Source of the DNA: Eledone cirrhosa
Taxonomy: Eukaryota
Length of the DNA: 64,000 nucleotides
Assembly: GCA_964016885.1 (NCBI GenBank)
Contig: CAXHJY010000335.1
Span: forward strand, 10,354-74,353
Reading direction: 5' to 3'
The notes under the pieces were generated by a model. That model was not told the origin of the DNA. It ran no database searches and worked only from the letters and a program-made list of their open reading frames with translations. This document shows, one piece after another, positions 1,501 to 61,620 of the stretch. The translations under genes were made by a program, and so were the position numbers. The number at the start of each line of letters is the position of its first letter. The first letter of the stretch is position 1.

Positions 1501-2810
1501 CTGGACAAATATGATATAAAATATGATTCATTTGAAAATACACAAACTATTTGATACATAGGATGAGAGACAGACTGTCAGTTAGATAGATGGACAGGTT
1601 GATAGGTAGACAGGCTGATAGGTAGACAGGCTGATAGATAGACAGGCTGTTAGGTAGACAGGCTGATAAGTAGACAGGCTGTTAGGTAGACAGGCTGATA
1701 GGTAGACAGGCTGTTAGATAGACAGGCTGTTAGATAGACAGGCTGATAGATAGACAGGCTGATAGGTAGACAGGCTGTTAGGTAGACAGGCTGATAGATA
1801 GACAGGCTGTTAGGTAGACAGGCTGATAGATAGACAGGCTGTTAGGTAGACAGGCTGTTAGATAGACAGGCTGATAGATAGACAGGCTGTTAGGTAGACA
1901 GGCTGATAGATAGACAGGCTGTTAGGTAGACAGGCTGTTAGGTAGACAGGCTGATAGATAGACAGGCTGTTAGGTAGACAGGCTGATAGGTAGACAGGCT
2001 GTTAGGTAGACAGGCTGATAGATAGACAGGCTGTTAGGTAGACAGGCTGATAGGTAGACAGGTTGATAGGTAGACAGGCTGTTAGGTAGACAGGCTGATA
2101 GGTAGACAGGTTGATAGGTAGACAGGCTGTTAGGTAGACAGGCTGATAGGTAGACAGGCTGATAGGTAGACAGGCTGTTAGGTAGACAGGCTGTTAGGTT
2201 GACAGGCTGATAGGTAGACAGGCTGATAGGTAGACAGGCTGATAGGTAGACAGGTTGATAGGTAGACAGGCTGTTAGGTAGACAGGCTGTTAGGTAGACA
2301 GGCTGTTAGGTAGACAGGCTGATAGGTAGACAGGTTGATAGGTAGACAGGCTGATAGGTAGACAGGTTGATAGGTAGACAGGCTGTTAGGTAGACAGGCT
2401 GTTAGGTAGACAGGCTGTTAGGTAGACAGGCTGATAGGTAGACAGGCTGTTAGGTAGACAGGCTGATAGGTAGACAGGCTGTTAGGTAGACAGGCTGATA
2501 GATAGACAGGCTGTTAGGTAGACAGGTTGTTAGGTAGACAGGCTGATAGATAGACAGGCTGTTAGGTAGACAGGTTGTTAGGTAGACAGGCTGATAGGTA
2601 GACAGGCTGTTAGGTAGACAGGCTGTTAGGTAGACAGGCTGATAGATAGACAGGCTGTTAGGTAGACAGGTTGTTAGGTAGACAGGCTGTTAGGTAGACA
2701 GGCTGTTAGGTAGACAGGCTGTTAGGTAGACAGGCTGTTAGGTAGACAGGTTGTTAGGTAGACAGGCTGATAGATAGACAGCCTGATAGATAGACAGGCT
2801 GATAGATAGA

Positions 2811-3364
2811 TTTCTTTATTAGCCACAAGGGCGCAACAAGAAAGGGGACAATACAAAGACATGCCGGGGATTTTACATACAGTCATGTAAAAAATATAAA
2901 AACAAACAATTTCAACAATCGAAATCCCCAATAGGGGGGAGGCGCCACAAATGGGTTGTTTAATACCCCGTCGATAGAACAACCCTCAACTCCAGGAGCG
3001 TGTTGTGCAAGTGCTCCTTTCTTCCTTTTGCTCTCTTCCTCAACCTACAGGCTTATAAACAGAGAAGGCCCAATCACTCGGGCCATTTTCGCTTCATTCA
3101 CCCACCTTTCAGTAAATTTACTGGGGTGCAGTGCCTCTCTCTCCACCCTGATTCTCCTTCTAAAGTGATACTTAAAGAAGGGAATCAATTGTTGTCCGGA
3201 GAGAAAGGCATCTGTCCTCAGTCCTCTCAACCTCGTCCACCATATAACTTCTTTCACCATAGCCACCGTACAGAGGAAAACCGCCTCTCTTTCGTTTTTG
3301 AAAGAGTCTGGCGGTTTGATCCTTACTATGGACTCGGCAGTCAACTGTATTTGTCCCATACGCG
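2811..3364 (-). mobile_element. Tx1-clade LINE copy E1 (short 5'-truncated copy, distinct subfamily)
   Basis: ORF2 C-terminus (3045-3359) homologous to E2-E4; its own 3' UTR ends GGCTAATAAAGAAA. Confidence 0.9.
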
Positions 3365-4051
3365 ACAGGCTGTTAGGTAGACAGGCTGATAGATAGACAG
3401 GCTGTTAGGTAGACAGGCTGATAGATAGACAGGCTGTTAGGTAGACAGGCTGTTAGGTAGACAGGCTGTTAGGTAGACAGGCTGTTAGGTAGACAGGCTG
3501 TTAGGTAGACAGGCTGTTAGGTAGACAGGCTGTTAGGTAGACAGGCTGATAGGTAGACAGGCTGTTAGATAGACAGGCTGTTAGGTAGACAGGCTGTTAG
3601 GTAGACAGGCTGTTAGGTAGACAGGCTGTTAGGTAGACAGGCTGTTAGGTAGACAGGCTGTTAGGTAGACAGGCTGTTAGATAGACAGGCTGTTAGGTAG
3701 ACAGGCTGTTAGGTAGACAGGCTGTTAGGTAGACAGGCTGTTAGGTAGACAGGCTGTTAGGTAGACAGGCTGTTAGGTAGACAGGCTGTTAGGTAGACAG
3801 GCTGATAGATAGACAGGCTGATAGGTAGACAGGCTGATAGATAGACAGGCTGTTAGGTAGACAGGCTGTTAGGTAGACAGGCTGATAGGTAAACAGGCTG
3901 TTAGGTAGACAGGCTGTTAGGTAGACAGGCTGATAGATAGACAGGCTGTTAGGTAGACAGGCTGATAGGTAGACAGGCTGTTAGGTAGACAGGCTGTTAG
4001 GTAGACAGGCTGATAGATAGACAGGCTGTTAGGTAGACAGGCTGATAGATA

Positions 4052-7023
4052 AGTTTCTTTTATTTGCCACTAGGGCATCAAAAGTGGGACAAGTACAAAG
4101 GGGGGAGTTTACACAAAAAGGCGTCCTCAATAAGGAGGAGGCAATAACAAAATATAAAAATAAAATAAGATATAACAAAATATAAAATTTTTAACAAAAT
4201 CCTCAATAGAGAGGAGGCGCCTTGGGGGGTCGCACACACCCCCGAAAAAAAGTGTGCAACCCTTTTCCTCAGGAGCACAGAGAAGGGGTGCTCCCTCGTT
4301 CCTTCCTCTTTTCCACCTACAGGCTTATGTAAAGAGAAGGCCCATTCACACGGGCCATTCTCGCCACTTTCACCCATCTTTCATAAAAACGACTGGGGTG
4401 CAGCACCTCTCTCTCCATCCTGATCCTTCTTCCGAAATGATATCGGAAGAAACGGACCAGTTGTTGGCCAGAGAGAAAGGTGCCTGACCTCAGTCCTTTC
4501 AGACGCGTCCACCATACAACCTCTTTCGCCATGGCTATTACGCACAGAAACACCGCCTCTGCTTCATCTTTGAAGGGGGGAGGCGGCTTGATCATTACAA
4601 TAGACTCGGTGGTCAACCGGATCGGTCCCACCCTTGACAGCAGTTGTTCGACATAGCCCCACAGATCGGCTACGCCCGAGCAGTGTACCAATGCGTGTGC
4701 AACGGTTTCCTCGTCGCACACGCATCTGGGACAGATCTTTTTGGCGGGGTCCCTACCCGGGCGCCCGTGTCTGTAGAGCCTTTCTCGAACGGGTAAAGCC
4801 CCTCGGTAGCACTGCCAGGCCAGGGACTTCTGGAAGTTGTCCATAGGTCCCGGGCTGAATGTCCTACCGAACAGGCTGGCCAGTTCGTCCTCCTCCATGT
4901 CTAGGGCTTCTCCGAGGGCGTCGTCGCACCTGCTGCGTACCAGCCCTCTATAGAATGTTGCGGTGGAGTCTCCACTGATAACCGGATCCGCCTGCCAGAG
5001 GGCGGTGAGCGCCTGGGCACACTCAGTGTGCCAGGCGCCCAGTTTTCTCGGTCTTTGCTTGACCCAGGATTGCAGCTCGGTGAGTGAGATGAGTCTGGGA
5101 AAGGTTCGTCTCACAAACGAGGCCCACACCGGTTGTCCGGTGAGGAATACGTAGAGGTGCCGTAGCCTTAATGCGTGTTTACGCATCATTAGCCACGGCA
5201 TCCCCAGCCCTCCTTTCGAAGGGTGTTGACAGCAGATGGATCTCCTCACCATAGGAGCCCGCCTCTTCCAAAGGAATTGGAAGAGCGTGCGCTCCATCTT
5301 GGTGAGGGTTTCCCTTGGGCAGGGCACTACGGTCAGGCGGTAGTAGATGACGGACGCTATATAAGTGTTCGCCACCTCCGCCCGACCTTTCAGGGATAGT
5401 TTGCAACTGGCCCACTTCTGGGTCAGTGCAAACACCCTGTTCGTAACCTCCGCCCAGTTTTTCTCCACCTGGAGGTCCGGTCCGAACCAGACCCCGAGCA
5501 ACTTCACCGGGCCCTCCGTCCAGCGTCCGACGACGCCATCAGAGGGCATCGGTCTGCCCCTCCACGTGCCGAGTTGCAAACCGATCGACTTGTCCCGGTT
5601 CAGCTTAGCCCCTGTGAACTTTTCGTACTCCTCCAGTAAGGTGCCGACCGCCTCGATTTCGGAGGCCGTCAACACCATTACTGTCACATCATCGGCGTAG
5701 GCTGACACCGTTTTCCGCAATCCCGGTTCCAAAGGGATGCCCTGCAACAACTCCAACTTCCGCAGTAGTGGCTCGAGAGTCAACACATACAGAAGGGAGG
5801 AGAGAGGGCACCCTTGTCGGATGGACCGCGCGATTTTGAACGGCTCCGAGAGGTAGCCATTCACCTTGACCCTAGAGCAGATGCGGCTGCTGTGCATAGC
5901 AGTGATCCAGCCCCTGAAAACGGGTCCGAAGCCTGCCGCCGCTAGCACCGCATCCAGGTAACCATGGTCGACCCTATCGAACGCCTTAGATTGATCCAAG
6001 TTGATCAGAGCCCCACCAAAGCCGGGTTCGTTCCCAACCCTCTCTATGATGTATCGCATGAGGTGGAGGTTGTCATGGATGGACCTGGACGGGATAGCGC
6101 ATGTCTGCGCATCTCCCACCAGGTTGCCCACGACAAGCGCCAACCTCTTTGCTAGCACCTTGGCCAAAATCTGTAACTCTGTATTTAGCAGAGTTATGGG
6201 CCTGAAGTTACTTATTTCGTCCCCCTTGTTCTCGTCCTTCCTCACTAGCGTGACTACGCCCTTGGTCACAGTACAGGGAATTCTCCCGTTCTGTTGCCAG
6301 TTGCAGTAGACCGCCTCGAGGAGATCGGGGAACAAGTCCGGCATAGCTAGATATAATTCGTAAGGAAGACCATCGAGACCCGGGGATTTGCGTTTGCTGC
6401 ATTGGCCCAGCACGTCCTCTATCTCAGCGGCCGAAATCGGCTCCTCGCAAGACTTCGCCTCCCTGTCCGAGAGGCGCGGCAGGCCGTCGAGGTATGGACC
6501 GAAGTCCACGTTTCCAACCGGCTCCCCGCCCCTCCCGAACAGTCGGGCAAAGTGCCTTTGAAAGGCCTCACACATCTGCTTAGGCTCAAGAATCGCCCGT
6601 CCATCCAGGTCTCGCAAAGACCGGATGGTGGATTTAGTTCCACTGTTGGCCTCTGTCACGCGGGCCCAGCTAACAGCTTTGGCCCCCTCGTTCCCTAGAG
6701 CACGTATTTTACTTCGGACAACGCAGCCTTCGTGCTTCGCGTCGAAAAACTGGCTCAAAGCCGTTCTCGACGCTAGCACTCTGGCCACGTCGCCGCTTCT
6801 AATTGCCTCTTCTACTCTATCTATTAGCTCCCTTTCCTTCCTATTCCTATCCGCAGCTAGAACCTTACTAAATTCAATCGAGACTACTCTAATCTCTCTC
6901 TTTAGAGATACCCACCACCTGCTGTTGACGATCGCTCCAGTCAACCGTTCCTTAACTAACGTACTAATCCGATTCCTGTAGGCTCTACTTGCCGGCAAGG
7001 ACAAGTTGAGCTTCCAGTAACCG
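4052..7023 (-). mobile_element. Tx1-clade LINE copy E2 (5'-truncated; RT and CCHC intact)
   Basis: Open frame 4317-7004 with QGCPLS, YADD and CPRC..H....C; nearly identical to E3. Confidence 0.95.
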
Positions 7024-7255
7024 GATAGATAGACAGGCTGTTAGGTAGACAGGCTGTTAGGTAGACAGGCTGTTAGGTAGACAGGCTGATAGGTAGACAG
7101 GCTGATAGATAGACAGGCTGATAGATAGACAGGCTGTTAGGTAGACAGGCTGATAGGTAGACAGGCTGTTAGGTAGACAGGCTGATAGGTAGACAGGCTG
7201 ATAGGTAGACAGGCTGTTAGGTAGACAGGCTGTTAGGTAGACAGGCTGATAGATA

Positions 7256-10200
7256 TATTTCTTTTATTTGCCACTAGGGCATCAAAAGTGGGACAAGTAC
7301 AAAGGGGGGAGTTTACATAACAAGGGGTCCTCAATAAGGAGGAGGCAATAACAAAATATAAAAATAAAATAAGATATAACAAAAAATAAAATTTTTAACA
7401 AAATCCTCAATAGAGAGGAGGCGCCTTGGGGGGTCGCACACACCCCCGAAAAAAGTGTGCAACCCTACTCCTCAGGAGCACAGAGAAGGGGTGCTCCCTT
7501 GGTCTTTCATCTTCCTCACCTATAGTCTGATGTAGAGTGAAGGCCCATTCACACGGGCCATTCTCGCCACTTTCACCCATCTTTCATAAAAACGGCTGGG
7601 GTGCAGCACCTCTCTCTCCATCCTGATCCTTCTTCCGAAATGATATCGGAAGAAACGGACCAGTTGTTGGCCAGAGAGAAAGGTGCCCGACCTCAGTCCT
7701 TTCAGACGCGTCCACCATACAACCTCTTTCGCCATGGCTATTACGCACAGAAACACCGCCTCTGCTTCATCTTTGAAGGGGGGAGGCGGCTTGATCATTA
7801 CAATAGACTCGGTGGTCAACCGGATCGGTCCCACCCTTGACAGCAGTTGTTCGACATAGCCCCACAGATCGGCTACGCCCGAGCAGTGTACCAATGCGTG
7901 TGCAACGGTTTCCTCGTCGCACACGCATCTGGGACAGATCTTTTTGGCGGGGTCCCTACCCGGGCGCCCGTGTCTGTAGAGCCTTTCTCGAACGGGTAAA
8001 GCCCCTCGGTAGCACTGCCAGGCCAGGGACTTCTGGAAGTTGTCCATAGGTCCCGGGCTGAATGTCCTACCGAACAGGCTGGCCAGTTCGTCCTCCTCCA
8101 TGTCTAGGGCTTCTCCGAGGGCGTCGTCGCACCTGCTGCGTACCAGCCCTCTATAGAATGTTGCGGTGGAGTCTCCACTGATAACCGGATCCGCCTGCCA
8201 GAGGGCGGTGAGCGCCTGGGCACACTCAGTGTGCCAGGCGCCCAGTTTTCTCGGTCTTTGCTTGACCCAGGATTGCAGCTCGGTGAGTGAGACGAGTCTG
8301 GGAAAGGTTCGTCTCACAAACGAGGCCCACACCGGTTGTCCGGTGAAGAATACGTAGAGGTGCCGTAGCCTTAATGCGTGTTTACGCATCATTAGCCACG
8401 GCATCCCCAGCCCTCCTTTCGAAGGGTGTTGACAGCAGATGGATCTCCTCACCATAGGAGCCCGCCTCTTCCAAAGGAATTGGAAGAGCGCGCGCTCCAT
8501 CTTGGTGAGGGTTTCCCTTGGGCAGGGCACTACGGTCAGGCGGTAGTAGATGACGGACGCTATGTAGGTGTTCGCCACCTCCGCCCGACCTTTCAGGGAT
8601 AGTTTGCAACTGGCCCACTTCTGGGTCAGTGCAAACACCCTGTTCGTAACCTCCGCCCAGTTTTTCTCCACCTGGAGGTCCGGTCCGAACCAGACCCCGA
8701 GCAACTTCACCGGGCCCTCCGTCCAGCGTCCGACGACGCCATCGGAGGGCATCGGTCTGCCCCTCCACGTGCCGAGTTGCAAACCGATCGACTTGTCCCG
8801 GTTCAGCTTAGCCCCTGTGAACTTTTCGTACTCCTCCAGTAAGGTGCCGACCGCCTCGATTTCGGAGGCCGTCGACACCATTATTGTCACGTCATCGGCG
8901 TAGGCCGACACCGCTTTCCGCAATCCCGGTTCCAAAGGGATGCCCTGCAACAACTCCAACTTCCGCAGTAGTGGCTCGAGAGTCAACACATACAGAAGGG
9001 AGGAGAGAGGGCACCCTTGTCGGATGGACCGCGCGATTTTGGACGGCTCCGAGAGGTAGCCGTTCACCTTGACCCTAGAGCAGATGCGGCTGCTGTGCAT
9101 AGCAGTGATCCAGCCCCTGAAAACGGGTCCGAAGCCTGCCGCCGCTAGCACCGCATCCAGGTAACCATGGTCGACCCTATCGAACGCCTTAGATTGATCC
9201 AAGTTGATCAGAGCCCCACCAAAGCCGGGTTCGTTCCCAACCCTCTCTATGATGTATCGCATGAGGTGGAGGTTGTCATGGATGGACCTGGACGGGATAG
9301 CGCATGTCTGCGCATCTCCCACCAGGTTGCCCACGACAAGCGCCAACCTCTTTGCTAGCACCTTGGCCAAAATCTGTAACTCTGTATTTAGCAGTGTTAT
9401 GGGCCTGAAGTTACTTATTTCGTCCCCCTTGTTCTCGTCCTTCCTCACTAGCGTGACTACGCCCTTGGTCACAGTACAGGGAATTCTCCCGTTCTGTTGC
9501 CAGTTGCAGTAGACCGCCTCGAGGAGATCGGGGAACAAGTCCGGCATAGCTAGATATAATTCGTAAGGAAGACCATCGAGACCCGGGGATTTGCGTTTGC
9601 CGCATTGGCTCAGCACGTCCTCTATCTCAGCGGCCGAAATCGGCTCCTCGCAGGACTTCGCCTCCCTGTCCGAGAGGCGCGGCAGGCCGTCGAGGTATGG
9701 ACCGAAGTCCACGTTCTTAACCGGCTCCCCGCCCCTCCCGAACAGTCGGGCAAAGTGCCTTTGAAAGGCCTCACACATCTGCTTAGGCTCAAGAATCGCC
9801 CGTCCATCCAGGTCTCGCAAAGACCGGATGGTGGATTTAGTTCCACTGTTGGCCTCTGTCACGCGGGCCCAGCTAACAGCTTTGGTCCCCTCGTTCCCTA
9901 GAGCACGTATTTTACTTCGGACAACGCAGCCTTCGTGCTTCGCGTCGAAAAACTGGCTCAAAGCCGTTCTCGACGCTAGCACTCTGGCCACGTCGCCGCT
10001 TCTAATTGCCTCTTCTACTCTATCTATTAGCTCCCTTTCCTTCCTATTCCTATCCGCAGCTAGAACCTTACTAAATTCTATCGAGACTACTCTAATCTCT
10101 CTCTTTAGAGATACCCACCACCTGCTGTTGACGATCGCTCCAGTCAACCGTTCCTTAACTAACGTACTAATCCGATTCCTGTAGGCTCTACTTGCCGGCA

Positions 10201-11152
10201 AGGACAAGTTGAGCTTCCAGTAACCGGGGCCCTGTCTATGAGTTCTGTCAAGGTTGACCATGCAGGTCACTAATTTGTGGTCTGAATAGCCAACAATGCG
10301 CATTTTTGGACAACTTAAAAAGTCCTTATCCTTAATTCTAACTAAGAACCTATCTAGGTACGACCTAGATGATCCGCTACGATTTGCCCAAGTCCAGGTT
10401 GGCGCAGTCGGAAAATCTAGTCGATATCTATCGGCCAGGTCAAATCGACCGATTAACCCTTTGAGGCTATTACACCCCTCTCTATCGGGGCAGGCCCCTA
10501 CGTAGTCCCAGCGTGCATCTAGGATACCATTCCAGTCCCCCACTAATAGCAAGGAGCGGGACGTCCCTAGAAAAGTCTCCAGACGATGGAAGAAGTCCGG
10601 CCGCATTGACCCGAAAGGGCCGTAGGCGGCTACCAACCTAAACGCTCCGCCTTTACCACTGCCAAGGTCCAGAACCACTAGTCGACCCTCCGGGTCCAAA
10701 TGTACCATCTGTGTTGCGAGACCCAGATGTTTTTGCAGCAGAACGACAACTCCACCCCCACCTCCGGGCTGACAGAGAGATGCGTGCATCTCAAAGTCAT
10801 CAAAGGTGGGGGCCAGCTGTCGCACGTTGCTGATCTGGGCCTCGCAAATAACCATCACATCTATACGTTGTGACCTGAGGTCATTTAGAAGCATTGCTTG
10901 CTTCCAAGTTGAGCCCAGGCCACGCGCATTTAAACAGCCTACTCTTAGCATAGCCATGTTGGTGGTGAAGAGAAAAGGCACTTACCTCTCTGCGTCCCGG
11001 GTATCGGGCTGCACAATTTCCATTAGGGTGGGGGATGGGTTGTTGGGTGGGGTGGTGGTTTGTGGAAGTGTGGGGGCATCAGTGTGTTGTGTGGTTGGGG
11101 AGCTTGGAGTTGTGTGGGTGTTTGGGGAGGGGGTGGGATAGTTTTTTAGGAG
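7256..11152 (-). mobile_element. Tx1-clade LINE copy E3 (complete ORF2 plus ORF1 tail)
   Basis: 3' UTR with AATAAA; intact ORF2; about 170 bp of Thr/Pro-rich ORF1 tail; apparent TSD AGGCTGATAGATA. Confidence 0.96.
7520..10957 (-). CDS. Tx1 ORF2: APE endonuclease, reverse transcriptase and CCHC finger, uninterrupted
   Basis: LRVGCLNARGL, GDWN, YLDR, SDH, GPGYWKLN, KSPGLDGLP, KAFDRV, QGCPLS, YADD. First true ATG at 10957 (the track starts at GTG 10981). Confidence 0.95.
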   Translation of the reverse strand: MAMLRVGCLNARGLGSTWKQAMLLNDLRSQRIDVMVICEAQISNVRQLAPTFDDFEMHASLCQPGGGGGVVVLLQKHLGLATQMVHLDPEGRLVVLDLGSGKGGAFRLVAAYGPFGSMRPDFFHRLETFLGTSRSLLLVGDWNGILDARWDYVGACPDREGCNSLKGLIGRFDLADRYRLDFPTAPTWTWANRSGSSRSYLDRFLVRIKDKDFLSCPKMRIVGYSDHKLVTCMVNLDRTHRQGPGYWKLNLSLPASRAYRNRISTLVKERLTGAIVNSRWWVSLKREIRVVSIEFSKVLAADRNRKERELIDRVEEAIRSGDVARVLASRTALSQFFDAKHEGCVVRSKIRALGNEGTKAVSWARVTEANSGTKSTIRSLRDLDGRAILEPKQMCEAFQRHFARLFGRGGEPVKNVDFGPYLDGLPRLSDREAKSCEEPISAAEIEDVLSQCGKRKSPGLDGLPYELYLAMPDLFPDLLEAVYCNWQQNGRIPCTVTKGVVTLVRKDENKGDEISNFRPITLLNTELQILAKVLAKRLALVVGNLVGDAQTCAIPSRSIHDNLHLMRYIIERVGNEPGFGGALINLDQSKAFDRVDHGYLDAVLAAAGFGPVFRGWITAMHSSRICSRVKVNGYLSEPSKIARSIRQGCPLSSLLYVLTLEPLLRKLELLQGIPLEPGLRKAVSAYADDVTIMVSTASEIEAVGTLLEEYEKFTGAKLNRDKSIGLQLGTWRGRPMPSDGVVGRWTEGPVKLLGVWFGPDLQVEKNWAEVTNRVFALTQKWASCKLSLKGRAEVANTYIASVIYYRLTVVPCPRETLTKMERALFQFLWKRRAPMVRRSICCQHPSKGGLGMPWLMMRKHALRLRHLYVFFTGQPVWASFVRRTFPRLVSLTELQSWVKQRPRKLGAWHTECAQALTALWQADPVISGDSTATFYRGLVRSRCDDALGEALDMEEDELASLFGRTFSPGPMDNFQKSLAWQCYRGALPVRERLYRHGRPGRDPAKKICPRCVCDEETVAHALVHCSGVADLWGYVEQLLSRVGPIRLTTESIVMIKPPPPFKDEAEAVFLCVIAMAKEVVWWTRLKGLRSGTFLSGQQLVRFFRYHFGRRIRMEREVLHPSRFYERWVKVARMARVNGPSLYIRL

Positions 11153-11965
11153 AGGCTGATAGATAGACAGGCTGATAGATAGACAGGCTGTTAGGTAGAC
11201 AGGCTGTTAGGTAGACAGGCTGATAGGTAGACAGGCTGATAGGTAGACAGGCTGATAGGTAGACAGGCTGATAGGTAGACAGGCTGATAGATAGACAGGC
11301 TGTTAGGTAGACAGGTTGTTAGGTAGACAGGCTGATAGGTAGACAGGCTGTTAGGTAGACAGGCTGTTAGGTAGACAGGCTGTTAGGTAGACAGGCTGAT
11401 AGATAGACAGGCTGTTAGGTAGACAGGTTGTTAGGTAGACAGGCTGATAGGTAGACAGGCTGTTAGATAGACAGGCTGATAGGTAGACAGGCTGTTAGGT
11501 AGACAGGCTGTTAGGTAGACAGGCTGTTAGGTAGACAGGTTGTTAGGTAGACAGGCTGATAGATAGACAGGCTGTTAGGTAGACAGGCTGTTAGGTAGAC
11601 AGGCTGTTAGGTAGACAGGCTGTTAGGTAGACAGGCTGTTAGGTAGACAGGCTGTTAGGTAGACAGGCTGATAGGTAGACAGGCTGATAGATAGACAGCC
11701 TGTTAGGTAGACAGGCTGATAGATAGACAGGCTGTTAGGTAGACAGGCTGTTAGGTAGACAGGCTGTTAGGTAGACAGGCTGTTAGGTAGACAGGCTGAT
11801 AGGTAGACAGGCTGTTAGGTCGACAGGCTGTTAGGTAGACAGGCTGTTAGGTAGACAGGCTGTTAGGTAGACAGGCTGTTAGGTAGACAGGCTGTTAGGT
11901 AGACAGGCTGTTAGGTAGACAGGCTGTTAGGTAGACAGGCTGATAGGTAGACAGGCTGATAGATA

Positions 11966-14900
11966 ATTTTCTTTTTATTTGCCACTAGGGCATCAAAAGT
12001 GGGACAAGTACAAAGGGGGGAGTTTACATAACAAGGGGTCCTCAATATGGAGGAGGCAATAACAAAATATAAAAATAAAATAAAATATAACAAGATAAAA
12101 TTTATAACAAAATCCTCAATAGAGAGGAAGCGCCTTGGGGGGTCGCACACACTCCCGAAAAAAAGTGTGCAACCCTTCTCCTCAGGAGCACAGAGAAGGG
12201 GTGCTCCCTTGGTCTTTCATCTTCCTCACCTATAGTCTGATGTAGAGTGAAGGCCCATTCACACTGGCCATTCTCGCCACTTTCACCCATCTTTCATAAA
12301 AACGGCTGGGGTGCAGCACCTCTCTCTCCATCCTGATCTTTCTTCCAAAATGATATCGGAAGAAACGGACCAGTTGTTGGCCAGAGAGGAAGGTGTCTGA
12401 CCTCAGTCCTTTCAGAAGCGTCCACCATACAACCTCTTTCGCCATGGCTATTACGCACAGAAACACCGCCTTTCCTTCGTTTTTGAAGAGGGGAGGCGGC
12501 TTGATCGTTACAATAGACTCGGTGGTCAACTGGATCGGTCCCACCCTTGACAGCAGTTGTTCGACATAGCCCCACAGATCGGCAATGCCCGAGCAGTGTA
12601 CCAATGCGTGTGCAATGGTTTCCTCGTCGCACACGCATCTGGGACAGATCTTTTTCGAGGGGTCCCTACCTGGGCGCCCGTGTCTGTAGAGCTTTTCTCG
12701 AACGGGCAGAGCCCTTCTGTAGCACTGCCAGGCCAGGGACCTCTGGAAGTTATCCATGGGTCCCGGGCTGAATGTCCTACCGAACAGGTTGGCCAGTTCA
12801 TCTTCCTCCATGCCTAGGGCTTCTCCGAGGGCGTCGTCGCACCTGCTAACTACCAGCCCTCTATAGAATGACGAGGTGGATTCTCCACTAACAGCCGGGT
12901 CCGCCTGCCAGAGAGCAGTGAGCGCCTGGGCACACTCAGTGTGCCAGGCGCCCAGTTTTCTCGGTCTTTGCGTGACCCAGGATTGCAGCTCGGTGAGTGA
13001 GACGAGTCTGGGAAAGGCTCGCCTCACAAACGGGGCCCACACCGGTTGACCGGAGAGGAATACCTGGAGGTACCGTAGCCTTAATGCGTGTTTACGTATC
13101 ATTAGCCACGGCATCCCCAGCCCTCCTTTCGAAGGGTGTTGACAGCAGATGGATCTCCTCACCATAGGAGCCCGCTTCTTCCAAAGGAATTGGAAGAGTG
13201 CGCGCTCCATTTTGGCGAGCGTTTCCCTTGGGCAAAGCACAACGGTCAGGCGGTAGTAGATGACGGGCGCTATATAAGTGTTTTCCACCTCCGCCCGACC
13301 TTTCAGGGACAGTTTGCACTCGGCCCACTTCTGGGTCAGTGCAAACACCCTGTTCGTTACCTCACCTCAGTTCTTCTCCACCTGGAGGTCTGGTCCGAAC
13401 CAGACTCCGAGCAACTTCACCGGGCCCTCCGTCCAGCGCCCGACGACGCCATCGGAGGGCATCGATCTGCCCCTCCACGTGCCGAGTTGCAGACCGATCG
13501 ACTTGTCCTGGTTCAGCTTAGCCCCTGTAAACCTTTTGTACTCCTCCAGTAAGGTGCCGATGCTCCCGATTTCCGAGGCCGTCGACACCATTAGTGTTAC
13601 GTCATTGGCGTAGGCCGACACCGCTTTCCGCAATCTCGGTTCCAACAGGATGCCCTGCAACAACTCCAACTTCCGCAGCAGTGGCTCTAGAGTCATTACA
13701 TACAGAAGGGAGGAGAGAGGGCACCCCTGTTGGATGGACCGCGCGATTTCGAACGGCTCCGAGAGGTAGCCGTTGTCCTTGACCCTAGAGCAGATGCGGC
13801 TGCTGTGCATGGCATTGATCCAGCCCCTGAAAACGGGTCCGAAGCCTGCCGCCGTTAGCACCGCATCCAGGTAACCATGGTCGACCCTATCGAACGCCTT
13901 AGATTGATCCAAGTTGATCAGGGCCCCACCAAAGCCGGGTTTGTTCCCAACCCTCTCTATGATGTATCGCATGAGGTGGAGGTTGTCGTGGATGGACCTG
14001 GACGGGATAGCACATGTGTGCGCATCTCCCACCAGGTTGCCCATGACAAGCACCAACCTCTTTGCTAGCACCTTGGCCAAAATCTGTAACTCTGTATTTA
14101 GCAGAGTTATGGGCCTGAAATTATTTATATCGTCCCTCTTGTTCTCGTCCTTCCTCACTAGCGTGACTACGCCCTTGGTCACAGCACAGGGAATTCTCCC
14201 GTTCTGTTGCCATTTGCAGTAGACCGCCTTGAGGAGATCGGGGAACAAGTCCGGCATAGCTAGATATAGTTCGTATGGAAGACCATCGAGACCCGGGGAT
14301 TTGCGTTTGCCGCATTGGCTCAGCACATCCTCTATCTCCGCGGCTGAAATTGGCTCCTCGCAGGACTTCGCCTCCCTGTCCGAGAGACGCGGCAGGCCGT
14401 CGAGGTATGGACCGAAGTCCACATCCCCAACCGGCTCCCCGCCCTTTCCGAACAATCGGGCAAAGTGCTTTTGAAAGGCCTCACACATCTGCTTAGGTTC
14501 AAGGATCGCCCGTCCATCCTGGTCTCGCAAAGATGGTGGATTTAGTTCCACTCTTGGCTCTGTCACGCGGGCCCAGCTAAGAGCTTTGGTCCCCTCGTTT
14601 CCCAGAGCACGTATTTTGCTTCGGATGATGCAGCCTTCGTGTTTCGTGTCGAAGAACTGGCCCAGGGCCGTTCTCGACGCTAGCACTCTGGCCACGTCGC
14701 CGCTTCTAATTGCCTCTTCTACACTATCTACCAACTCCCTTTCCTTCTCATTTCTAGTTGAGGCTAACTCCTTACTAAATTCTATAGAGACTACTCTAAT
14801 CTCTCTTTTGAGAGATCCCCACCACCTGCTGTTGACGATGGCGCCCGTCAACCGCTCCTTAACTAAAGTGCTAATCCGGTCCCTGTAAGCCTTACTTGCC

Positions 14901-15848
14901 GGTAAGGACAAGTTGAGCTTCCAGTAACCGGGTCCCCGTCTATGTGTTCTGTCAAGGTTGACCATGCAGGTCACTAACTTGTGGTCTGAATAGCCAACCA
15001 TGCGCATTTTTGGACAACTTAAAAAGTCCTTATCCTTAATTCTAACTAAGAACCTATCTAGGTACGACCTAGATGATCCGCTACGATTTGCCCAAGTCCA
15101 GGTTGGCACAGTCGGAAAATCTAGTCGATATCTATCGGCCAGGTCAAATCGATCGATTAACCCTTTGAGGCTATTACACCCCTCTCTATCGGGACAGGCC
15201 CCTACGTAGTCCCAGCGTGCATCTAGGATACCATTCCAGTCCCCCACTAATAGCAAGGAGCGGGACGTCCCTAGAAAAGTCTCCAGACGATGGAAGAAGT
15301 CCGGCCGCTTTGACCCGAAAGGGCCGTAGACGGCTACCAACCTAAACGCTCCGCCTTCACCACTGCCAAGGTCCAGAACCACTAGTTGACCCTCCGGGTC
15401 CAAATGTACCATCTGTGTTGCGAGACCCAGATGTTTTTGCAGCAGAACGACAACCTCACCCCCACCTCCGGGCTGACAGAGAGATGCGTGCATCTCAAAG
15501 TCATCAAAGGTGGGGGCCAGCTGTCGCATGTTGTTGATCCGGGCCTTGCAAATAACCATCACATCTATACATTGTGACCTGAGGTCATTTAGAAGCATTG
15601 CTTGCTTCCAAGTTGAGCCCAGGCCACGTGCATTTAAACAGCCTACTCTTAGCATTGCCATGTTGGTGGTGAAGAGAAAAGGCACTTACCTCTCTGCGTC
15701 CTGGGTATCGGGCTGCACAATTTCCATGAGGGTGGGAGATGGGTTGTTGGGTGGGGATGACTTGGGTGGGGGTGCCTGTGGTGGGGAGGCCTTTGTAGAG
15801 GACGCGGTTGATTGGTTTCACGCAGGAATTCCCCACGTCCTCTACAAA
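11966..15848 (-). mobile_element. Tx1-clade LINE copy E4 (older; ORF2 inactivated)
   Basis: ORF2 15661-12230 has an in-frame TGA at 13369-13367, YADD changed to YAND, and compensating indels near 14530-14555. Confidence 0.95.
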
Positions 15849-16229
15849 TATATACAGAATATATTTGCTATGTGTATACCAGTTATTAGAATAAGTACAC
15901 TTTCTCTGCATGTCATGAGAATTGACTAAAAGGGTTGGCACCAGGAAGGGCATTGGGCTGTAAAACATTGTCTCAATTCCATGTTAGCATGGAAAGGAAG
16001 ACGTAAAAATGATTATGATGATGATATAAATCCATAATTTACAAAGAAATTAAAAAAAATTCTCTAACTACTATCATTTCAAATAATACAGAAGTGAGGT
16101 GTGATCTATAGCCCATCTGGGAGGTCTGTAGCTCTAATTAAGAACAGACTTAGTCTATGACAACCTGTCCAACCCATGCCAGCATGGAAAAATGCATATT
16201 AAATGATAATGATGATGTTGAAAACAAAC

Positions 16230-16469
16230 CTTTTAGCAGGAAGATTGACACCGGCAGCTAGGGTTGAAGTACAAGCTAATAAGCACAGAGTACCATCTGA
16301 GTATGCATCTTCTATCAGCCTCCGTTCATCACTAGTAAGCCCACTGTGGTGATAGGCAAGGCCAAAAGGAACCGTTTGTGCTAAAACAGAGCACAAATGT
16401 CCATTGTTATCAGCTTTCAGATCTTTCAGAAGTTGTTTTTTATGAGATCTGTGAATATCCAGTAAATTC
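16230..16469 (-). CDS. HELQ: HELQ exon with motifs IVa and V
   Basis: [46 protein letters not shown]; TTGCAG acceptor; AG|GTTTGT donor. Confidence 0.97.
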
Positions 16470-17410
16470 CTGCAAAATATAAATATGGTCAACCCTTCTG
16501 ATTAGAAAACTGCCTGAAAACACCTCTGATTTTATGAGACAAAATTATCCATTTTAATGAGTTCATATTTATATTAAAACCTTCCATAATAATTCTATGT
16601 AAGAACTTTTTGTCAAGTAATGCTCCAAACATCAGCTTAATAATAAGAAAGTTAGTTATGTTACTAAATGTCTTAAAATTCTTGATTATTTCCAAAATAT
16701 CTTGAAAAACATAGGCAGTGTTTTTCATAAGAAATATGGTAATGAAAGGATTATGGTTAAGAAAGAAAAGGTGCATTAGATGAATTTAACTCTTAACATT
16801 CTGCAATAATTTAGAAGATAATACTAAAAAAAATATGGACAGATAGTTTTGAACATTTGTAGCAAGAGAGTAAAAGAGTAAAAGAATTGCTGAATCAGCA
16901 ATTCTGTGCTTAAACTTTAATCTGTTCTTATAATAAATATATATATATATATATCAAGGGAAAAGGGAATATGATATATATATATATATATATATTCCAC
17001 CTTCTCTTTTCATTTCTTCTTGGCTAATCAATATGTTGGGCCTCATCTATATCTCTTCTTTTCAGTTACAGTACATTGGTTTCTAACATATTTTATCTTA
17101 TTTGTAAATAGTCAAAAGATCAATTGTCTTTCTTGTGTCCATTTGTTACTGTCCCATGTGTGTACACTGGAGCCAGTTGTAATGATCTTAAAGCACTGAA
17201 ATAACATATCTCCATTGATCAACTGATGAAAGGGGACTGCCTTTGTTTCGTTCATTTTTCTGTTGTCTTTGCCCATATTTTTATTTATAAATATAATCCT
17301 CATCACCGTTTAAAGTCCATTTTTCCATGCTAGCATGGGTTAGATGAGCTGTCCCATTGTGAGTCAAGCCAGGTCAGATGACCGTGTCTTTCTCATGCAG
17401 AACTGATTAT

Positions 17411-19568
17411 ATCATCATCCTCACCGTTTTACGTCCGTTCTTCCACGCTAGCATGGGTTAGACGGGTTGTTCTGTTGTGGGCAGTGTCCAGTCTTGCTCA
17501 TATGGGAACTGATTCTGGCTTGATTTCTACAGCTGGATGCCCTTCCTAACACCAACCTCATTTACAGTGAGTGCTGGGTGCTTTTTTCCGTGGCGCCTCG
17601 GGTCTTCTGTATTACTGCGTGACGCCAGAGGTCACAGTCGTGTGTCATCGCCTTTGAGTAAGGTTGGCTTTTATCACCTCATCCCAGGTCTTCTTAGGTC
17701 TCTCCACTCCACGGTTTCTATCGACTTCTAGTGCTCTGCATCTTTTTATGCAGTTGTCATCCTTCATACACATCACATGTCCATACCAACGCAACCTCCT
17801 CTCCTGCACACAGCATTTGATTCCTCTTATGCTCAGTCTCTCTCTCAATTCGTTTATGCGTTTCTGTTCGAGTATATTACTATTACACATCCATCAGAGC
17901 ATGCAGGCTTCGTTTCTTTCTAATCTACGCAAGTCTTCTACAGACAGCGCCCAGGTCTCACTACCATGTAACATTGCTGTTTGTATACACGCATCATACA
18001 GTCTGCTCTTCATTTTGAGAGGAAAAGCCTTTTGCAGCTAGCAGTGGCTCCCTGAACTTCTTCCATCCCGTTCTTACCCTAGTTATTGTACTTTCCGAAC
18101 ACCCACCTCTGCTGCTAATTCTGTCACCTAGGTAGCAGAAGCTGTCTACTGTTCCTACAGAGCCCTCCCAGAGTTTGGTCATGCTTGTTTCCTGTGGCTG
18201 TTTGCTGCTTGCTGTCCCAGTGCAGCTGCTACAGGTGAAGCCTACATTCTTAGTTAAGCTTCCCGAGATCCCACTACATCTCTTGTGTACCCATTGTTTG
18301 CATTTGGGGCAGAGGATGGAGTTCCTACCTACACCTTTCCTACATTCTGAGCAAGGCCATTTCCCTGAGGGGATCTGGGTTCTGTTTTCTCCTCTACTTA
18401 CAAGGACCTTAGTCTTTGTAAGGTAGACTTTGAGACCCCTTTTTTCTAGTCCCTGCTTCCATGTTTAGAATTTCTTCTCTAGTTCTACCATAGATTCAGC
18501 TATAAGTGCGAGGTCATCTGCATACAGGAGTTCCCACGGGCATCCGGTCTTAAACTCATCCGTTATTGCCTGCAAAACTATGATGAACAGGAGAGGGCTA
18601 AGAACAGAGCCCTGGTGGACACCGACCTGCATGCTAAATTCATCGCTATAGTCATTGCTAATCCTAACTTTGCTGACTGCTCCCCTATACATGGCTTGTA
18701 CAACTTTCACAAGCCATTCATTTACCCCTAGTTTCCTAAGAGCCCACCAGATTATGGCACGGGGAACTCTGTCAAAGGCTTTCTCCATATCGACGAATGT
18801 CAGGTAGAGTGGCTTACTTTTAGCTAGGTACTTTTCCTGTAACTGCCTCACAAGGAAGGAAGAAGGCATCAGTGTTGCCTTTTCCTGGCACAAACCCAAA
18901 TTGCATCTCATCTAGTTTCACCCAGTCCCTAATCAACTGTGCTATAACTCTTTCTGTTACTTTCATGACCTGGTCCATCAGCTTTATACCTCTATAGTTT
19001 CTTCTATCTAGTTGTAGCAGTTGACAATGAAGCTGCTGCACCAATCCTTTGGTATGACACCTTCTAGTATTACCTGGTTAACAATACGTGTGGTTATGGT
19101 GTGACCTACCGACCCAGATGCCTTCAGCATCTCGGCAGCTATACCCGATGGACCGGTTGCCTTCCCCGTCTTCATATCTTTGATTGCCTTACTTACTACT
19201 CTGCTGCTGACTTGTATTGCTGGCCCCTCTATAGGGTCTACTTGGGGTAGAGTCTCTTTCTCCCAGGCATTCTCCTCATTTAGTAATCTTTCATAATAGC
19301 TCTTCCACACATCTTTCTTCTCAGCACTTGTGAGTGCAAGCTCACCTTTATCATTCCGGATACACTTCTCTCCAATGACATCACAATTCTCTCTGACACA
19401 CTGCCTCACAATCTTGAACATCTCCTGTTTCTGGTCCTCACGTTGCAAGACATGCTTCAATTTTCTATCCGCCGCTTCCCTTCTAGCTAAGTATACTTGT
19501 CACCTAGCTTCCCTCCTGGTCTCTATGTAACGTACCCTGCTTCCCCCGTTCTTCCATTCTTTCCATGC

Positions 19569-19570: not shown

Positions 19571-19612
<42 letters not shown>

Positions 19613-19614
<2 letters not shown>

Positions 19615-55590: not shown

Positions 55591-55592
<2 letters not shown>

Positions 55593-58500
55593 TTTCTTTA
55601 TTAACCACAAGGGTTTACATAAAGTAGACATTAAGGACAGTGCAGGACAATACAGGACGGTACAAATGGGCATTTCTGCGTGTAAAAACAAAAACAGAGG
55701 ATGTAACAAAAAATAACAATGAAAAATTCCCCAATAGGGGGGAGACTTCGGAGGGACATTTGTGGAGAAAGCCCAGTAAAAGGCCACAATGACCCTGACC
55801 ACCAAGGCAAGTGCCCTCTCCCAGTTTTCCACCTTTAATTTACAGATATATACTCAGAGTAGGCCCCTTCACTCGGGCCATTCTTGCTTCTCACACCCAT
55901 CTTTCAACAAAATGCTGGGAAGAGAGCACTTCCCTCTCTACTCTGATTTTCCTTTTCAAATGAAATTTGAAAAAGTCAATCAGAGCATCACCGAAGAGGT
56001 AAGTGCTCGTCTTCAGCCCTTTCAAACGTGTCCACCATACTATCTCTTTCGCCATGGCCACCAGACAGATAAAAACTGCCTGCCCTTCCCGGCTAAAGGA
56101 AGAGGGCAGGGCAATCCTCACGATGGACTCAGATGATAGCCGGATCCGTCCTAAACGCGACAGCAGGTGTTCGACATAAACCCACAAGTCAGCAATTTTC
56201 GGACACTAGACGAGTGCGTGCAGGACGGTTTCGTCGCCCTGCGCGCATCTCGGACATGCCCGGCTGACGGCACCTCCATGCCTGTAGAGTTTATCCCGAA
56301 CTGGCAAAGCTCCTCGGTAGCACTGCCAGGCCAGAAATTTCTGGAAGTTGTCCATAGGCCCTGGCCCGAAAGTTCTTCCGAAGAGATTGGCTAGTTGATT
56401 TTCGTCGACGCCTAGAGTTTCCCCAAGTACGTCGTCGCTCTTCCCCTCCACTAATCCTCTATAGAACGCCGAGGTGGAGTTTCCACCGATCACATTGCCC
56501 GATTGGTCGAGGGCTGTGAGCGCCTGAAGACATTCCAGTCTCCAGCCGCCCCCTCTCGGTCTTCGCTTGACCCAGGACTGCAGCTCCGTCAAGGAAACGA
56601 GCTGGGGAAATACGTGTCTAGCAAACGGCGACCACACCTGATCACCGTCGAGGAAGAGGTGGAGATGTCGTAGCCTGAGCGCGTGCCTGCGCATCATCAG
56701 CCACGGCATGCCCAGCCCTCCACGTAGCGGGTGTTGACAACAGATGGACCGCCTGACCATCGGAGCGCGTCCCTTCCACAAAAAGCGAAAGAGCAAACGC
56801 TCCAGCGCAGTCAGGCGAGGCTTAGGACAAGGTACGACGGTCAGGCGGTAGCAGATGACGGACGCGATGTACGCGTTAGCCACCTCCGCTCGACCTTTCA
56901 GGAATAGCTTCCTCTCCGCCCATTTCTGTGTGAGAGAAGCCACCCTGCTCGTCACCTCGTCCCAGTTTTTGTCCGTCTGGAGGTCCGGACCGAACCAGAC
57001 TCCTAGCAATTTAACCGGTCCGTCTGTCCAGCATCCAACGACGCTGTTGGACGGCATGGACCTGCCTCTCCAGGTGCCGAGTTGCAGGCCCACTGACTTT
57101 TCCTGGTTGATCATTGCTCCTGTCACCGCTTCGTATTCTCTTAGTGTAGTGCTGATCGCCTCGATTTGTTTGGCATTCGACACCACTACGGTGACATCGT
57201 CCGCATATGCTGACACGGATCTTCCGCATCCTAGTTCGCGCGGGACGCCCCTCAACGTCTCCAGTTTGTGCAGTAATGGCTCGAGAGTCAATACGTACAA
57301 GAGGGACGAGAGGGGACATCCTTGGCGGACCGAGCGCATGATGTTGAACGGTTCCGAAAGGTGACCGTTCACTCTCACCACAGAGCAGATGTCGCTGTGC
57401 ATGGCAGCGATCCAGCCTCTGAAGACGGGCCCAAAGCCACCGCCCTCAGGACTGCCGCTAGGTAACGATGGTCGACCCTATCGAAAGCTTTCGACTGATC
57501 TAAATTGATCAAGGACCCACCCGTGCCAGGTTCCCTAGCTACCCTCACTACGATGTATCGCATGAGGTGGAGGTTGTCGTGGATGGATCTGTCGGGAATG
57601 GCGCATGTCTGCGCCTCTCCCACCAGACCACCAACGACAAGCGCCAACCTCTTTGCTAGCACCTTGGCCAAAATCTTGAACTCTGTGTTTAGCAGAGTTA
57701 TGGGCTTGAAATTATCTATGTTATCCCCCTTGTTCGGATCCTTTCTCAGCAGTGCCACCGCTCCTCGGCTCACAGAGCTGGGAATTCTCCCGTTCTGTTG
57801 CCAGTTACAGTGGATGTCCGCCAAGAGGCCTCCGAACAAGTCTGGCCTCTGTACGTAAAGTTCATAGGGCAGACCATCCAAACCAGGCGATTTACCCCTT
57901 GTGCAGCCAGTCATTGCCTCCCGTACTTCAGCGGCTGTTATCGGCTTTTCGCAACACTCCGCCTCAGTGGCCGAGAGCCGCGGCAGTCCGTCGAAGGTAG
58001 ACACTAAAGTCCATCCCTCGACCCGGCCCACCGCTGCCCCCGAACAGCTGCGCGAAGTGTCTCTGAAAAGCTTCACACATTTGCCCGGGATCGAGTAGCA
58101 TGCGCCCGTCGTGGTCCACCAAAGACCGGATCGTGGCTTTGTTTCCACGACGCGCCTCCGCCACTCGGGCCCATTGAACGGCTTTCGTCCCCTCGTGTCT
58201 GAGAGCACGCACCCTAGCTCTGACAACGCAGCCTTCGTGCTTTGCATTGAAGAATTGGTCAAGGGCCAATTTCGCCGCAAGCACGTCGGTCGCGATGCCT
58301 TTGCTAAGCGCCTCGTCTAATTTTCTAACTAGTTCTCCCTCTGCTCTATTTTTCTCTTTTGCTAAAGCCTTACTAAACCTAATGGATTCTATTCTAATCG
58401 CTCTTTTCAGAGCAAACCACCACTTGTTGTTGACGATAGCCCCGTCAACGCCCGCTTAACTAGTTCGCTAATCAGGTCTCTATAAGCTTTGCGCGCTGGT

Positions 58501-61500
58501 AAGGACGCGTTTAGCTTCCAGTAGCCGGGTCCTCGTCTATGAAGCCTATCTAAGTCAAACACACAGATCACGAATTTGTGGTCCGTGTAGCTGACTATCT
58601 TGAATTGTGGACAGCCTATGCGAGACCTATCTATTTCCCTACAAAATACTCTATCTAGATATGATCTGGATGACCCTATGCGATTTGTCCAAGTCCACAT
58701 TGGTACATTCGGGAAATCCAATCTCGGTACCTGTCAGACAGTTCAAAACACCTGAGCAGGTTGGTGAGGCTCTTGCACCCTCCACCCCTATCCGCTAATC
58801 CCACACAGTGCCAGCGTGCATCTAAGATCCCGTTCCAGTCGCCAACTAACACTAAAGAGCGGGACGTTCCAAGAAAGGTCTCCAGACGCCGGAAGAAATC
58901 AGGCCGCCCTGCTCCTGTCGGGGCATAGACGGCCACTAGCCTGAAAGCTTGCCCTTCTCCGCTGGTCACGTCCAGCACCACCAACTTACCCTCTGGGTCC
59001 AGGAAGATGGCCCGTATGGCGAGATCCAAACCTCTCCGAAAAAGAACAGCAACTCCTCCCCCCGATCCAGGACGGCTGGGAGATGCGTACGCATCGTAGC
59101 CGCCGAAGATCGGTGCGAAGGCCCGTGCTTCGGAGATTCTGGTCTCGCTGATGGCCACTACATCTATGTTTAGTGACCTGAGGTCGTTGAGCAGGTGACC
59201 CTGCTTCCATGACGACCCCAAGCCACGCGCATTTATGCTGCCTATTCTGAGTGAGATCATGTTTAAAATGGAGTGGAAAAGATGGGAAAGACCACTTACC
59301 GTACTTTTCGTAGAGGAAGGATGGTTTCTCCATCCCTTTTCACTTCATCGTCTGGTGAAGGGACCGTTGAATCGTCCCTTCGGCTGGTCGTCGGCTCTTC
59401 TATGAGTATGTCCGAATATACTCTCCGGTTGAGAGTCCCTCCTAGGTCTCTGAAATCACCAACTGCGTTGGGGAATTTCGTTTTAATGTTTGTGTATTGT
59501 TTCTGTGCTATTTTTACCAGTCTTATGTTCGTTGGCGTTTTGATTGCTGCTGGTATTATGTAGTCGTGCTGTGAAATGTCTGTGTGTTCAATTATGTAAG
59601 TCATTAGTTTCTTGTTGTGTGTATTTATTGCCGTGCATTTGTTTTTCTGGGGGTAGGGTGTGGTTCTGCTATTTTCTTGTCGTTGTTGCTGGGTGTGTGT
59701 GTTTTGTTGTTGTGTTTGCGATGTTGGTGCTTGTGGTGGTGGTGTTGAAGGTGTTGTCGCCGGTGGTGATGGTGGTGCTAGTGGGGTGGTGATGATGTTG
59801 GTGGTGTTACTGTTGTGAGTCTCTTTGCAGTAGCCTTTACCCTTTTTTCATTTCTTTCCTCTCTTTTCGAAGGCGACGACGCGCTGCTTCTGCGTTTGTG
59901 CCTTCTTATGACCTTTTGCCATCCCTCTCCCACCTCACACTCCATGTCTGATTCTGTGAGGTCGGGGAGGGGTTCCAGCTCCACTCTTTCACTTGTTGTT
60001 GTTGGTGATGTTTGCAGTGGAGTCTCTGTTGCAGCTGCATTTGGTATTACTGTTGTTGTTGTTAATACTTCCACTGCTGCTGCTGTTCTTGATTTCCGTG
60101 GCGTGGGTATGGGTGCCACGGACCTATCATTCCTGGTTGCCGCTTGTCCTGTTGCTGGTAGCCGTGGAGCCGGTTTCGGAAGGAGGGGGGTTTTCTCCTT
60201 TCTCAGGATCTTCTCGTTGCAGAAGGCCCTGAGGTGAGTCTTCGATCCACAGCGAAAGCATTTCGGGCGTTTGCCCTCAACACTTATGGGCAGTTGAGTG
60301 CCGTTATCGAAGTCTATCACATCCGGGATAGCTTCGATGCACTCCTGGTTGGTTTGGATTAACATCTCAATGGAGGTGCCGACCCAATCTTCTCTTACTT
60401 TTTCTGTACTTGCAGTACAGTTGTTTTGTCCTCGATTCCGATGAGGACAGACGCGGCCAGCCAAGAAGGGGCCATCCCGAGGGGGACGTGGGTCAGTTTT
60501 ACTCTCACAATTTTTTGCCCGCAGTAGGAGGACACCAACACCATTTCCTCGCTGCTTAGGGTCACTAAGGATTGAGCCTTTGCCTCCTGGGGTATGGCAA
60601 AAAGCACGTCTACGGTGGCATATTTCTTGCCTCGGGTGATATGCGTTTTCCGCTGCCACACAGACCCTAAGGCTTTTTGTATTTGAGCCTCTGTGGCTCT
60701 TTCAACCCTACGGGATTTTGTGCTTACTGTACGGTACGTGACCGTACAGTGCTGTTGGGTTTCGAAACATTTTTCGGCTGCCTTACAGATTGCTCGGTGT
60801 CTGGTTTTCGTCACCATCTTCTTCGCTTCCTGTAATTCCTCATTTGTTATGAGGATGGTTTCCAGGTTCTTTGCGATACCTGCAAACGAGATTGGTTTTT
60901 CTTTGCTGCTGTTGTTGTTGTTGTTGTCCTCAGAGCTGCTGTTACTTTTGTTGTTGCTGCAGGTACTACGACTACTGCCGCCGCCGCTGTTGCTGTGGTT
61001 GTTGTTGTTGCTGCTGCTGCTGTTGTTGTTGCTGCTAATGCTGTTGTTGTTTATGCTGCTGCTGATGCTGTTGCGACTGCTACTGTTGTTTTTCTTGTTA
61101 CTGTTGCTGCTGCTGCTGTTATTACGGCTGCTACTGCTATTATTCATGACGTCAGACGAATGAAATGGGTTTTCGTATTTCCCGCACACCTTTTTCATCG
61201 TTGTCGTCGTCGTCGTGGAGAAATTTTGCACGCTTTACACATGATTTTTCTTTACTGGCGTCGCTTGCGAAAGAGAAGGGAGGGAGAGAGACACATTTAA
61301 AGAAGGGAGGGAGAGAGACAATCTTCTCTCTGCTGTAGTGACGATTGAGGAAGAAGAAGACGGAATGAGGGGGAGTGACCTATGAAAATTCTTTTTCGTA
61401 GCCATGTTTTTTTTTTGTTTAAAATAAATATTGGGCACAAAACCCCAATAAGCGGTTATTTAACCCCGAAGGGCCAAATAACGGGCAGAAAGACCCCGCT

Positions 61501-61620
61501 CACGAGGAGGAGGGTGTTTTTGTCTACAATTTGGTTAAAGTTTTAAACAATTTACAAATGTTATAGCTGTCAAAATTTACAATACCTTACAGAGCCGAGC
61601 CTCCGACAACCATAGCATTC
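55591..61620 (-). mobile_element. Apparently full-length Tx1-clade LINE E5 in (TAA)n, frameshifted
   Basis: 5' UTR; ORF1 about 61231-59296 (Ser/Asn tract, CFRCGSKTHLRAFC knuckle); ORF2 59260-55840 (APE, RT, CCHC); AATAAA; (AAT)n at 55538-55590 and 61621-61650. Confidence 0.93.

Follow-up and report, generated by a model that had tools for sequence, protein, structure and literature searches.

We analysed a 64,000-nucleotide stretch of the octopod Eledone cirrhosa (the window; assembly GCA_964016885.1, contig CAXHJY010000335.1), in which one large intron of HELQ is, as the initial annotation had reported, filled almost completely by a minisatellite and four copies of long interspersed nuclear elements (LINEs). 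Together these account for 97% of the intron, and the flanking exons join in frame across it. Specifically, four minisatellite blocks (M1–M4) are interleaved with four LINE pieces (E1–E4), all on the minus strand and in the same orientation, between 1590 and 15849 (Table 1). The minisatellite units are of three types, GATAGATA, GATAGGTA and GTTAGGTA, and the minority type GATAGATA makes up 32 of the 184 units in the intron. A 29-mer of this minisatellite has 33 exact matches in the genome, every one at the HELQ locus. The upstream HELQ exon was located on the small contig C362 alone and on no chromosome-scale contig among the 40 candidates scored.

Table 1. Features of the HELQ intron and a related element in the window.
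Feature	Position	Strand	Remarks
HELQ exon upstream of the intron	16230..16470	-	Helicase_C (Pfam PF00271); splice; exact match in one contig of run X4
HELQ intron	1501..16229	-	14,729 bp; GT-AG; in-frame splice
Minisatellite block M1	1590..2808	.	~76 units; 16-bp unit GACAGGCTG(T/A)TAG(G/A)TA
Minisatellite block M2	3364..4051	.	~43 units
Minisatellite block M3	7024..7255	.	~14 units
Minisatellite block M4	11153..11965	.	~50 units
E1	2809..3368	-	5'-truncated, ~560 bp; young sister subfamily; ends AAAGAAA-TC; no exact duplication
E2	4052..7024	-	5'-truncated just past the endonuclease; ends AAAGAAA-CT; 8-bp duplication
E3	7256..11152	-	5' truncation in the last part of ORF1; ends AAAGAAA-TA; 13-bp duplication; one full-length copy is 99.5% like it
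E3 ORF2	7520..10957	-	1,145 aa; APE endonuclease, RT (YADD), C-terminal zinc finger
E4	11966..15849	-	older copy, broken ORF2; ends AAAGAAA-AT; 5' end meets unique intron; no duplication
Sister-lineage LINE, (ATT)n-targeting	55591..61620	-	full-length, frameshifted; (AAT)n on both sides

The four elements are L1-group LINEs. Open reading frame 2 (ORF2) carries an N-terminal apurinic/apyrimidinic (APE) endonuclease, a reverse transcriptase (RT) and a C-terminal zinc finger (zf-RVT, E = 3.9e-5, below the Pfam cut-off), and 5'-truncated copies with target-site duplications are present, both as in the L1 group. The ORF2 of E3 is open, and its endonuclease, already described as intact, has all catalytic residues (N9, E38, Y112, D141/N143, D202, H227). 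The solved structure closest to E3 ORF2 is human L1 ORF2p (PDB 8sxt; residues 8–862, E = 1.7e-47; R2, 5e-19), and the closest named protein, from Argonauta hians, matches at 66% over the RT region. Full-length natural copies of 5,715 and 5,816 bp have ORF1 and ORF2. Members of the Tx1 clade have a separate ORF1 with a CCHC knuckle; in one full-length copy (L123), ORF1 is 593 aa long, with a visible CX2CX4HX4C motif and a weak zf-CCHC match (E = 0.051) below the cut-off. Based on this architecture and the likeness to the L1 group, the LINEs of the HELQ intron likely belong to the Tx1 clade. No named Tx1 protein (Tx1L, Keno, Kibi, Koshi) was among the matches of the protein searches with the lineage, and in a quick RT tree it grouped with fish and turtle RT proteins, none of them labelled Tx1, and not with plant L1. 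A metagenome scan for the targets of the next-nearest clade (ENA records, ~50% RT identity) returned none, and a second scan returned distant or partial relatives.

At each of the four 3' junctions, GGCTGATAGATA is followed by two copy-specific element bases (GA at 2809-2810, AG at 4052-4053, TA at 7256-7257 and AT at 11966-11967); in element orientation, E1–E4 thus end in AATAAA(A)GAAA and the two copy-specific bases, and then TATCTATCAGCC begins. Because these two terminal bases belong to the element, the E1 junction lies at 2808/2809 and not at 2810, where it had been placed. The claim that all four junctions follow the minority unit is borne out, and they do so in one register; four out of four in a GATAGATA unit would arise by chance with a probability of 5e-4 to 9e-4, not yet counting the shared register. 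The 5' junctions of E2 and E3 had been thought to resume with a target-site duplication, and exact duplications are present at both (GATAGATA at 4044-4051 and 7024-7031; AGGCTGATAGATA at 7243-7255 and 11153-11165). Next to the 5' junction of E4, at 15790-15849, there is a 13-bp inverted repeat, GTAGAGGACG...CGTCCTCTAC, flanked by T/A runs.

On the full-length natural copies, the 5' ends of E1, E2 and E3 fall at 5259, 2746 and 1821, respectively, and that of E4 in the tail of ORF1; these differing truncations and the separate duplications of E2 and E3 agree with the earlier proposal of independent insertions. The copies had also been described as differing in divergence. This is correct for E4, the sole older copy, whose nearest other genomic matches are at 96–97%, but not for E1: it is 76% like E3 and 99–100% like the best 40 of 692 genomic candidates scored, and is a member of a young sister subfamily rather than a decayed copy. 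E3 is 99% like the best 40 of 1,148 genomic candidates scored. We also considered misassembly of the array, or local duplication of one insertion as the origin of E2–E4, given that the window is on a small contig, that E2 and E3 are 98.6% alike and that no junction-spanning contig was seen. However, the four terminal dinucleotides are all different and each recurs genome-wide (CT of E2 and TA of E3, and those of E1 and E4 likewise), the 5' ends differ, E3 is less like E2 than like copies far away (99.5%), and minisatellite words occur in short-read contigs. The four copies represent different subfamilies that occur throughout the genome, a pattern that no assembly error would create, and we regard this explanation as having next to no probability. 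Among contigs and one restriction-site-associated DNA run over 15600-16600 and 11060-11200, no piece spans an element junction, which is uninformative either way.

The target preference is evident throughout the genome. The exact 23-nt 3' end common to E2–E4 occurs 1,974 times and is followed by NN-TATC in 1,680 cases, against a TATC background of 0.40% per position (200 kb in twenty evenly spaced 10-kb stretches), and a looser 3'-end pattern identified 13,403 further related ends followed by NN-TATC; the GATA-targeting lineages thus comprise ~15,000 dispersed copies. Genomic 3' junctions are therefore neither random nor merely AT-rich, and the 85% among exact ends far exceeds the 20% of flanks above which a Tx1 element is considered target-specific (Kojima 2015). 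In a sample of 99 non-redundant copies (38 E3-type, 33 E1-type and 28 E4-type, three window loci excluded), which are the best-scoring matches and no random draw, the downstream flank starts with TATC in 94 and with TATCTAT in 87, whereas (TATC)4 continues in only 34; the insertion into (TC)n or (TTC)n that characterizes Kibi and Koshi was not found. Based on these junctions, the integration site would be TATCTATC/TATCTAT, a (GATA)n junction. Because the target is ordinary (GATA)n, the HELQ minisatellite would be only an incidental, imperfect landing pad. The initial annotation had postulated one GATA-repeat-specific Tx1 family; genome-wide junctions, duplications and the upstream flank support the specificity, but several subfamilies share it, with endonucleases 71–80% identical to that of E3.

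These counts would also be expected if TATC were the elements' own tail, sites were random and the repeats had grown later from such tails, and TATCTAT indeed follows nearly every copy, many of which lie in long (TATC)n. We therefore compared both flanks of the 65 truncated copies whose 5' flank could be read. Exact duplications of at least 7 bp starting right after the two terminal bases are present in 50 of them; in 28, the duplication is non-periodic (8–25 bp), and non-periodic matches of at least 10 bp occur in 25 of the 65 true pairs versus 111 of 4,160 mismatched pairs. Although these truncated copies carry no head, TATCT lies at most 28 bp from the 5' junction in 54 of the 65. Moreover, the eight bases upstream match TATCTATC in at least six positions at 22 of 28 duplications versus 25 of 114 background TATCTAT sites (p = 4e-8). 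One copy (L174) has a clean 16-bp duplication with no TATC at all, and two others (L138 and L062) retain just TATC or TATCT; these off-target flanks imply that no fixed tail is added. In three other, unrelated minisatellites (at L024, L135 and L143), the minority TATCTAT unit was chosen and the variant is kept in the 5' duplicate, the minority units there numbering 12 of 98, 9 of 56 and 13 of 96, respectively, with the junction copies included; two further minisatellite cases (L025/L129 and L017/L124) are ambiguous. Because truncated copies have the motif a second time on their 5' side, the upstream bases match and off-target copies lack it, and because all 33 exact matches of the minisatellite pattern are at the HELQ locus, an own tail is highly improbable.

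We conclude, with a probability of roughly 0.8, that the HELQ intron received independent insertions of young L1-group LINEs, likely Tx1, at TATCTATC/TATCTAT, and that their endonuclease likely nicks the opposite strand. The 3' end consists of AATAAA(A)GAAA followed by two bases specific to each subfamily and lacks poly(A), the duplication begins with the next base, and the target preference reaches ~8 bp upstream of that point. Our working model is that a predicted nick at 5'-ATAGATA/GATAGATA-3' on the opposite strand would prime reverse transcription of the element RNA at the target, that a second nick would follow ~15 bp downstream, and that the primer may in addition pair with the end of a read-through RNA. 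The HELQ minisatellite offered ~30 imperfect sites (GTC/TATCTATC) and was struck four times; four copies are present in one intron because the family integrates at TATCTAT, and in one orientation because the motif is on one strand.

Several observations weigh against this conclusion. About 15% of the exact 3' ends lack NN-TATC, the 99 copies were chosen by score, and 15 of the 65 truncated copies have no duplication. In the intron itself, E1 has no exact duplication and shows a 5-nt microhomology to a common minisatellite unit, the 5' end of E4 at 15849 abuts unique intron with neither minisatellite nor duplication, and no second copy of the HELQ flank, whether an empty site or a second allele, was found in the assembly. 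Finally, conservation is strongest at +1 to +7, the stretch that would pair with a primer, the junctions of L124 and L129 fit equally well with two tail-derived bases, and the L1 endonuclease nicks more loosely in vitro than L1 integrates in vivo, so that other factors contribute (PMC1950540). The conservation at +1 to +7 and the junctions of L124 and L129 would suit a loose endonuclease, guided by AT-richness or structure, with specificity coming mainly from a read-through RNA whose end (UAUCUAU...) pairs with the nicked primer; a mechanism of this kind has been proposed for RTE elements that have microsatellite ends (PMC6007223). Such pairing would also agree with the missing poly(A) tail, with the site of the four window copies being perfect downstream and poor upstream, and with a hairpin loop that is nearly alike in the GATA (RSGSSR) and (ATT)n (RIGSSR) lineages. 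Nevertheless, upstream bases are selected although they cannot pair with the RNA, and L174, L138 and L062 integrated with little or no motif; we consider it unlikely that pairing is the main source of specificity, although both mechanisms may act together.

Microsatellite targets on record for Tx1 elements are (TC)n, (TTC)n, (TTCC)n and (TTTC)n (PMC4494074, PMC4640811, PMC13282606, PMC8967140, PMC1950540, PMC1919474, PMC2718515, PMC6007223), with teleost Kibi and Koshi using (TC)n and (TTC)n and crocodilian Tx1 families (TTCC)n/(TTTC)n (PMC4494074). The elements described here are likewise APE-type LINEs specific for microsatellites; compared by target description only, they differ from Kibi and Koshi in using (TATC)n/(GATA)n, in their octopod host and in having sister lineages that use (ATT)n and a satellite. 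Like Tx1L of Xenopus laevis, they have two ORFs, the order APE endonuclease, RT and zinc finger, and a recognition of ~10 bp around the nick (PMC1950540, PMC1919474). The Tx1L endonuclease cuts its own target almost exclusively (PMC1950540), and this target is a single site in a DNA transposon, whereas the present target is short and periodic and has received >15,000 dispersed copies. Human L1, in contrast, carries a poly(A) tail, and its consensus is TTTT/AA. The main text of PMC4494074 does not mention 'GATA', and the text of the paper that reports 13 active L1-Tx1 families in Octopus vulgaris is without the word 'target'. Our literature search found no GATA-specific Tx1 and no cephalopod Tx1 target, while Kojima and Fujiwara 2004, Repbase, Dfam and the figures and supplements of PMC4494074 could already record one. 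Within this scope, (GATA)n would be an addition to the targets of sequence-specific APE-type LINEs.

Close relatives in the same genome use two other targets. The best 30 fetched relatives of the full-length copy at 55591-61620 all end in GAAA-NN-ATT, a pattern found at 13,124 ends genome-wide, and of 16 longer stretches of this lineage, 9 extend to the 5' end, with (ATT)n just before every one of them. Inspected by eye, the first 100 generic ends listed, which are the start of contig C1 and not a random set, comprise 39 TATC, 4 near-TATC, 38 ATT-type, 16 ACTCT and 3 others. The ACTCT class has 353 copies, which on the largest contigs lie mainly close to the ends; its insertion site is CATT/ACTCTATATATAC within a ~70-bp satellite. 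In quick RT trees, from which P0203 and ATT rows with stops or frameshifts were excluded, the GATA subfamilies form one clade (99) within which the satellite lineage is nested (97), and the ATT lineage forms another (95) beside the Argonauta protein. Endonuclease identity to E3 is 78% for the satellite lineage and 61% for the ATT lineage. A YAPFW motif is found in the satellite lineage alone, where the others have Y(A/G)P(F/S/T)G, and it adjoins the position aligned with the asparagine of L1 that corresponds to R1Bm Tyr-98 (PMC1919474); this change (candidate G116W) is a lead to a possible tie with the satellite target. Loop grafts among the endonucleases of L1, Tx1L and R1Bm gave no modular transfer of specificity (PMC1950540). 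Because endonucleases that are 60–80% identical have different sites here, the comparison is far tighter and targeting determinants could be tested by few swaps. Three targets are in use by closely related LINEs of a single genome, and for two of these targets there are copies with an intact ORF2. Simple repeats would steer ~29,000 LINE insertions in this genome, also into conserved genes, where HELQ is an example of an affected intron.

The 5' end of full-length copies appears to include target sequence. All 24 listed full-length GATA-type heads have (ATCT)n-like sequence just before them; in L135, the element start is separated from the 16-bp duplication by ~4 ATCT units, which the target minisatellite does not contain. 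Each of the 10 full-length copies of the satellite type begins with the same satellite piece of 62–65 nt, which in most copies differs from their own 3' flank (clearest in L328). The ATCT units in L135 and the common satellite head suggest 5' co-transcription of the target: full-length RNAs would begin in the upstream target repeat and take (ATCT)n along, so that the next insertion site gains sequence that could be a target again. Full-length copies of the R1 element of the Drosophila melanogaster type similarly have upstream target at the 5' end and a duplication near 14 bp (PMC2718515); R1 belongs to another clade and targets 28S ribosomal DNA, and the piece it carried is no new repeat target, whereas the present head is itself a target. 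By a strict count that replaces a looser one (38 of 101), a same-orientation relative starts within 200 nt downstream of 27 of the 99 copies, and an opposite-orientation relative of none. Such neighbours are expected because the target is strand-asymmetric, and the count alone does not show that heads seeded those sites. Tentatively, and at somewhat under even odds, this octopod LINE radiation makes its own landing pads via carried heads and thereby builds chains of copies in the same orientation and spreads (GATA)n, (ATT)n and the 70-bp satellite, one lineage having switched from microsatellite to satellite through few endonuclease changes, possibly including G116W, while keeping a TCTAT core.

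We note some further observations on related sequences. Six copies of the satellite-targeting lineage form a tandem chain at C1:4228986-4259403 of the assembly (G000; L328-L340), and some satellite tracts begin with TTTAACCCTTTAG, which may derive from the end of a small mobile element. At three loci (L341-L343), Tx1-like 3' ends are adjoined by ATT/ATA and a sequence that resembles the head of a tRNA-derived short interspersed nuclear element (SINE); these may be loose ATT sites or a fourth class of target. In the window, an old, internally deleted Tx1-like copy (61878-64000, minus strand) ends before TAATAATGGTTTCTG, and its part at 61878-62400 has no close genomic relative (best 77%). Another LINE, which we take to be RTE-like, has an open 1,043-aa endonuclease-RT frame at 19531-22662 (plus strand), with broken minus-strand relatives at 17994-19499. 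Finally, repeated 146–204-bp units between (ATTAT)n and (ACTAC)n at 52319-54901 are possibly SINEs with pentanucleotide tails.

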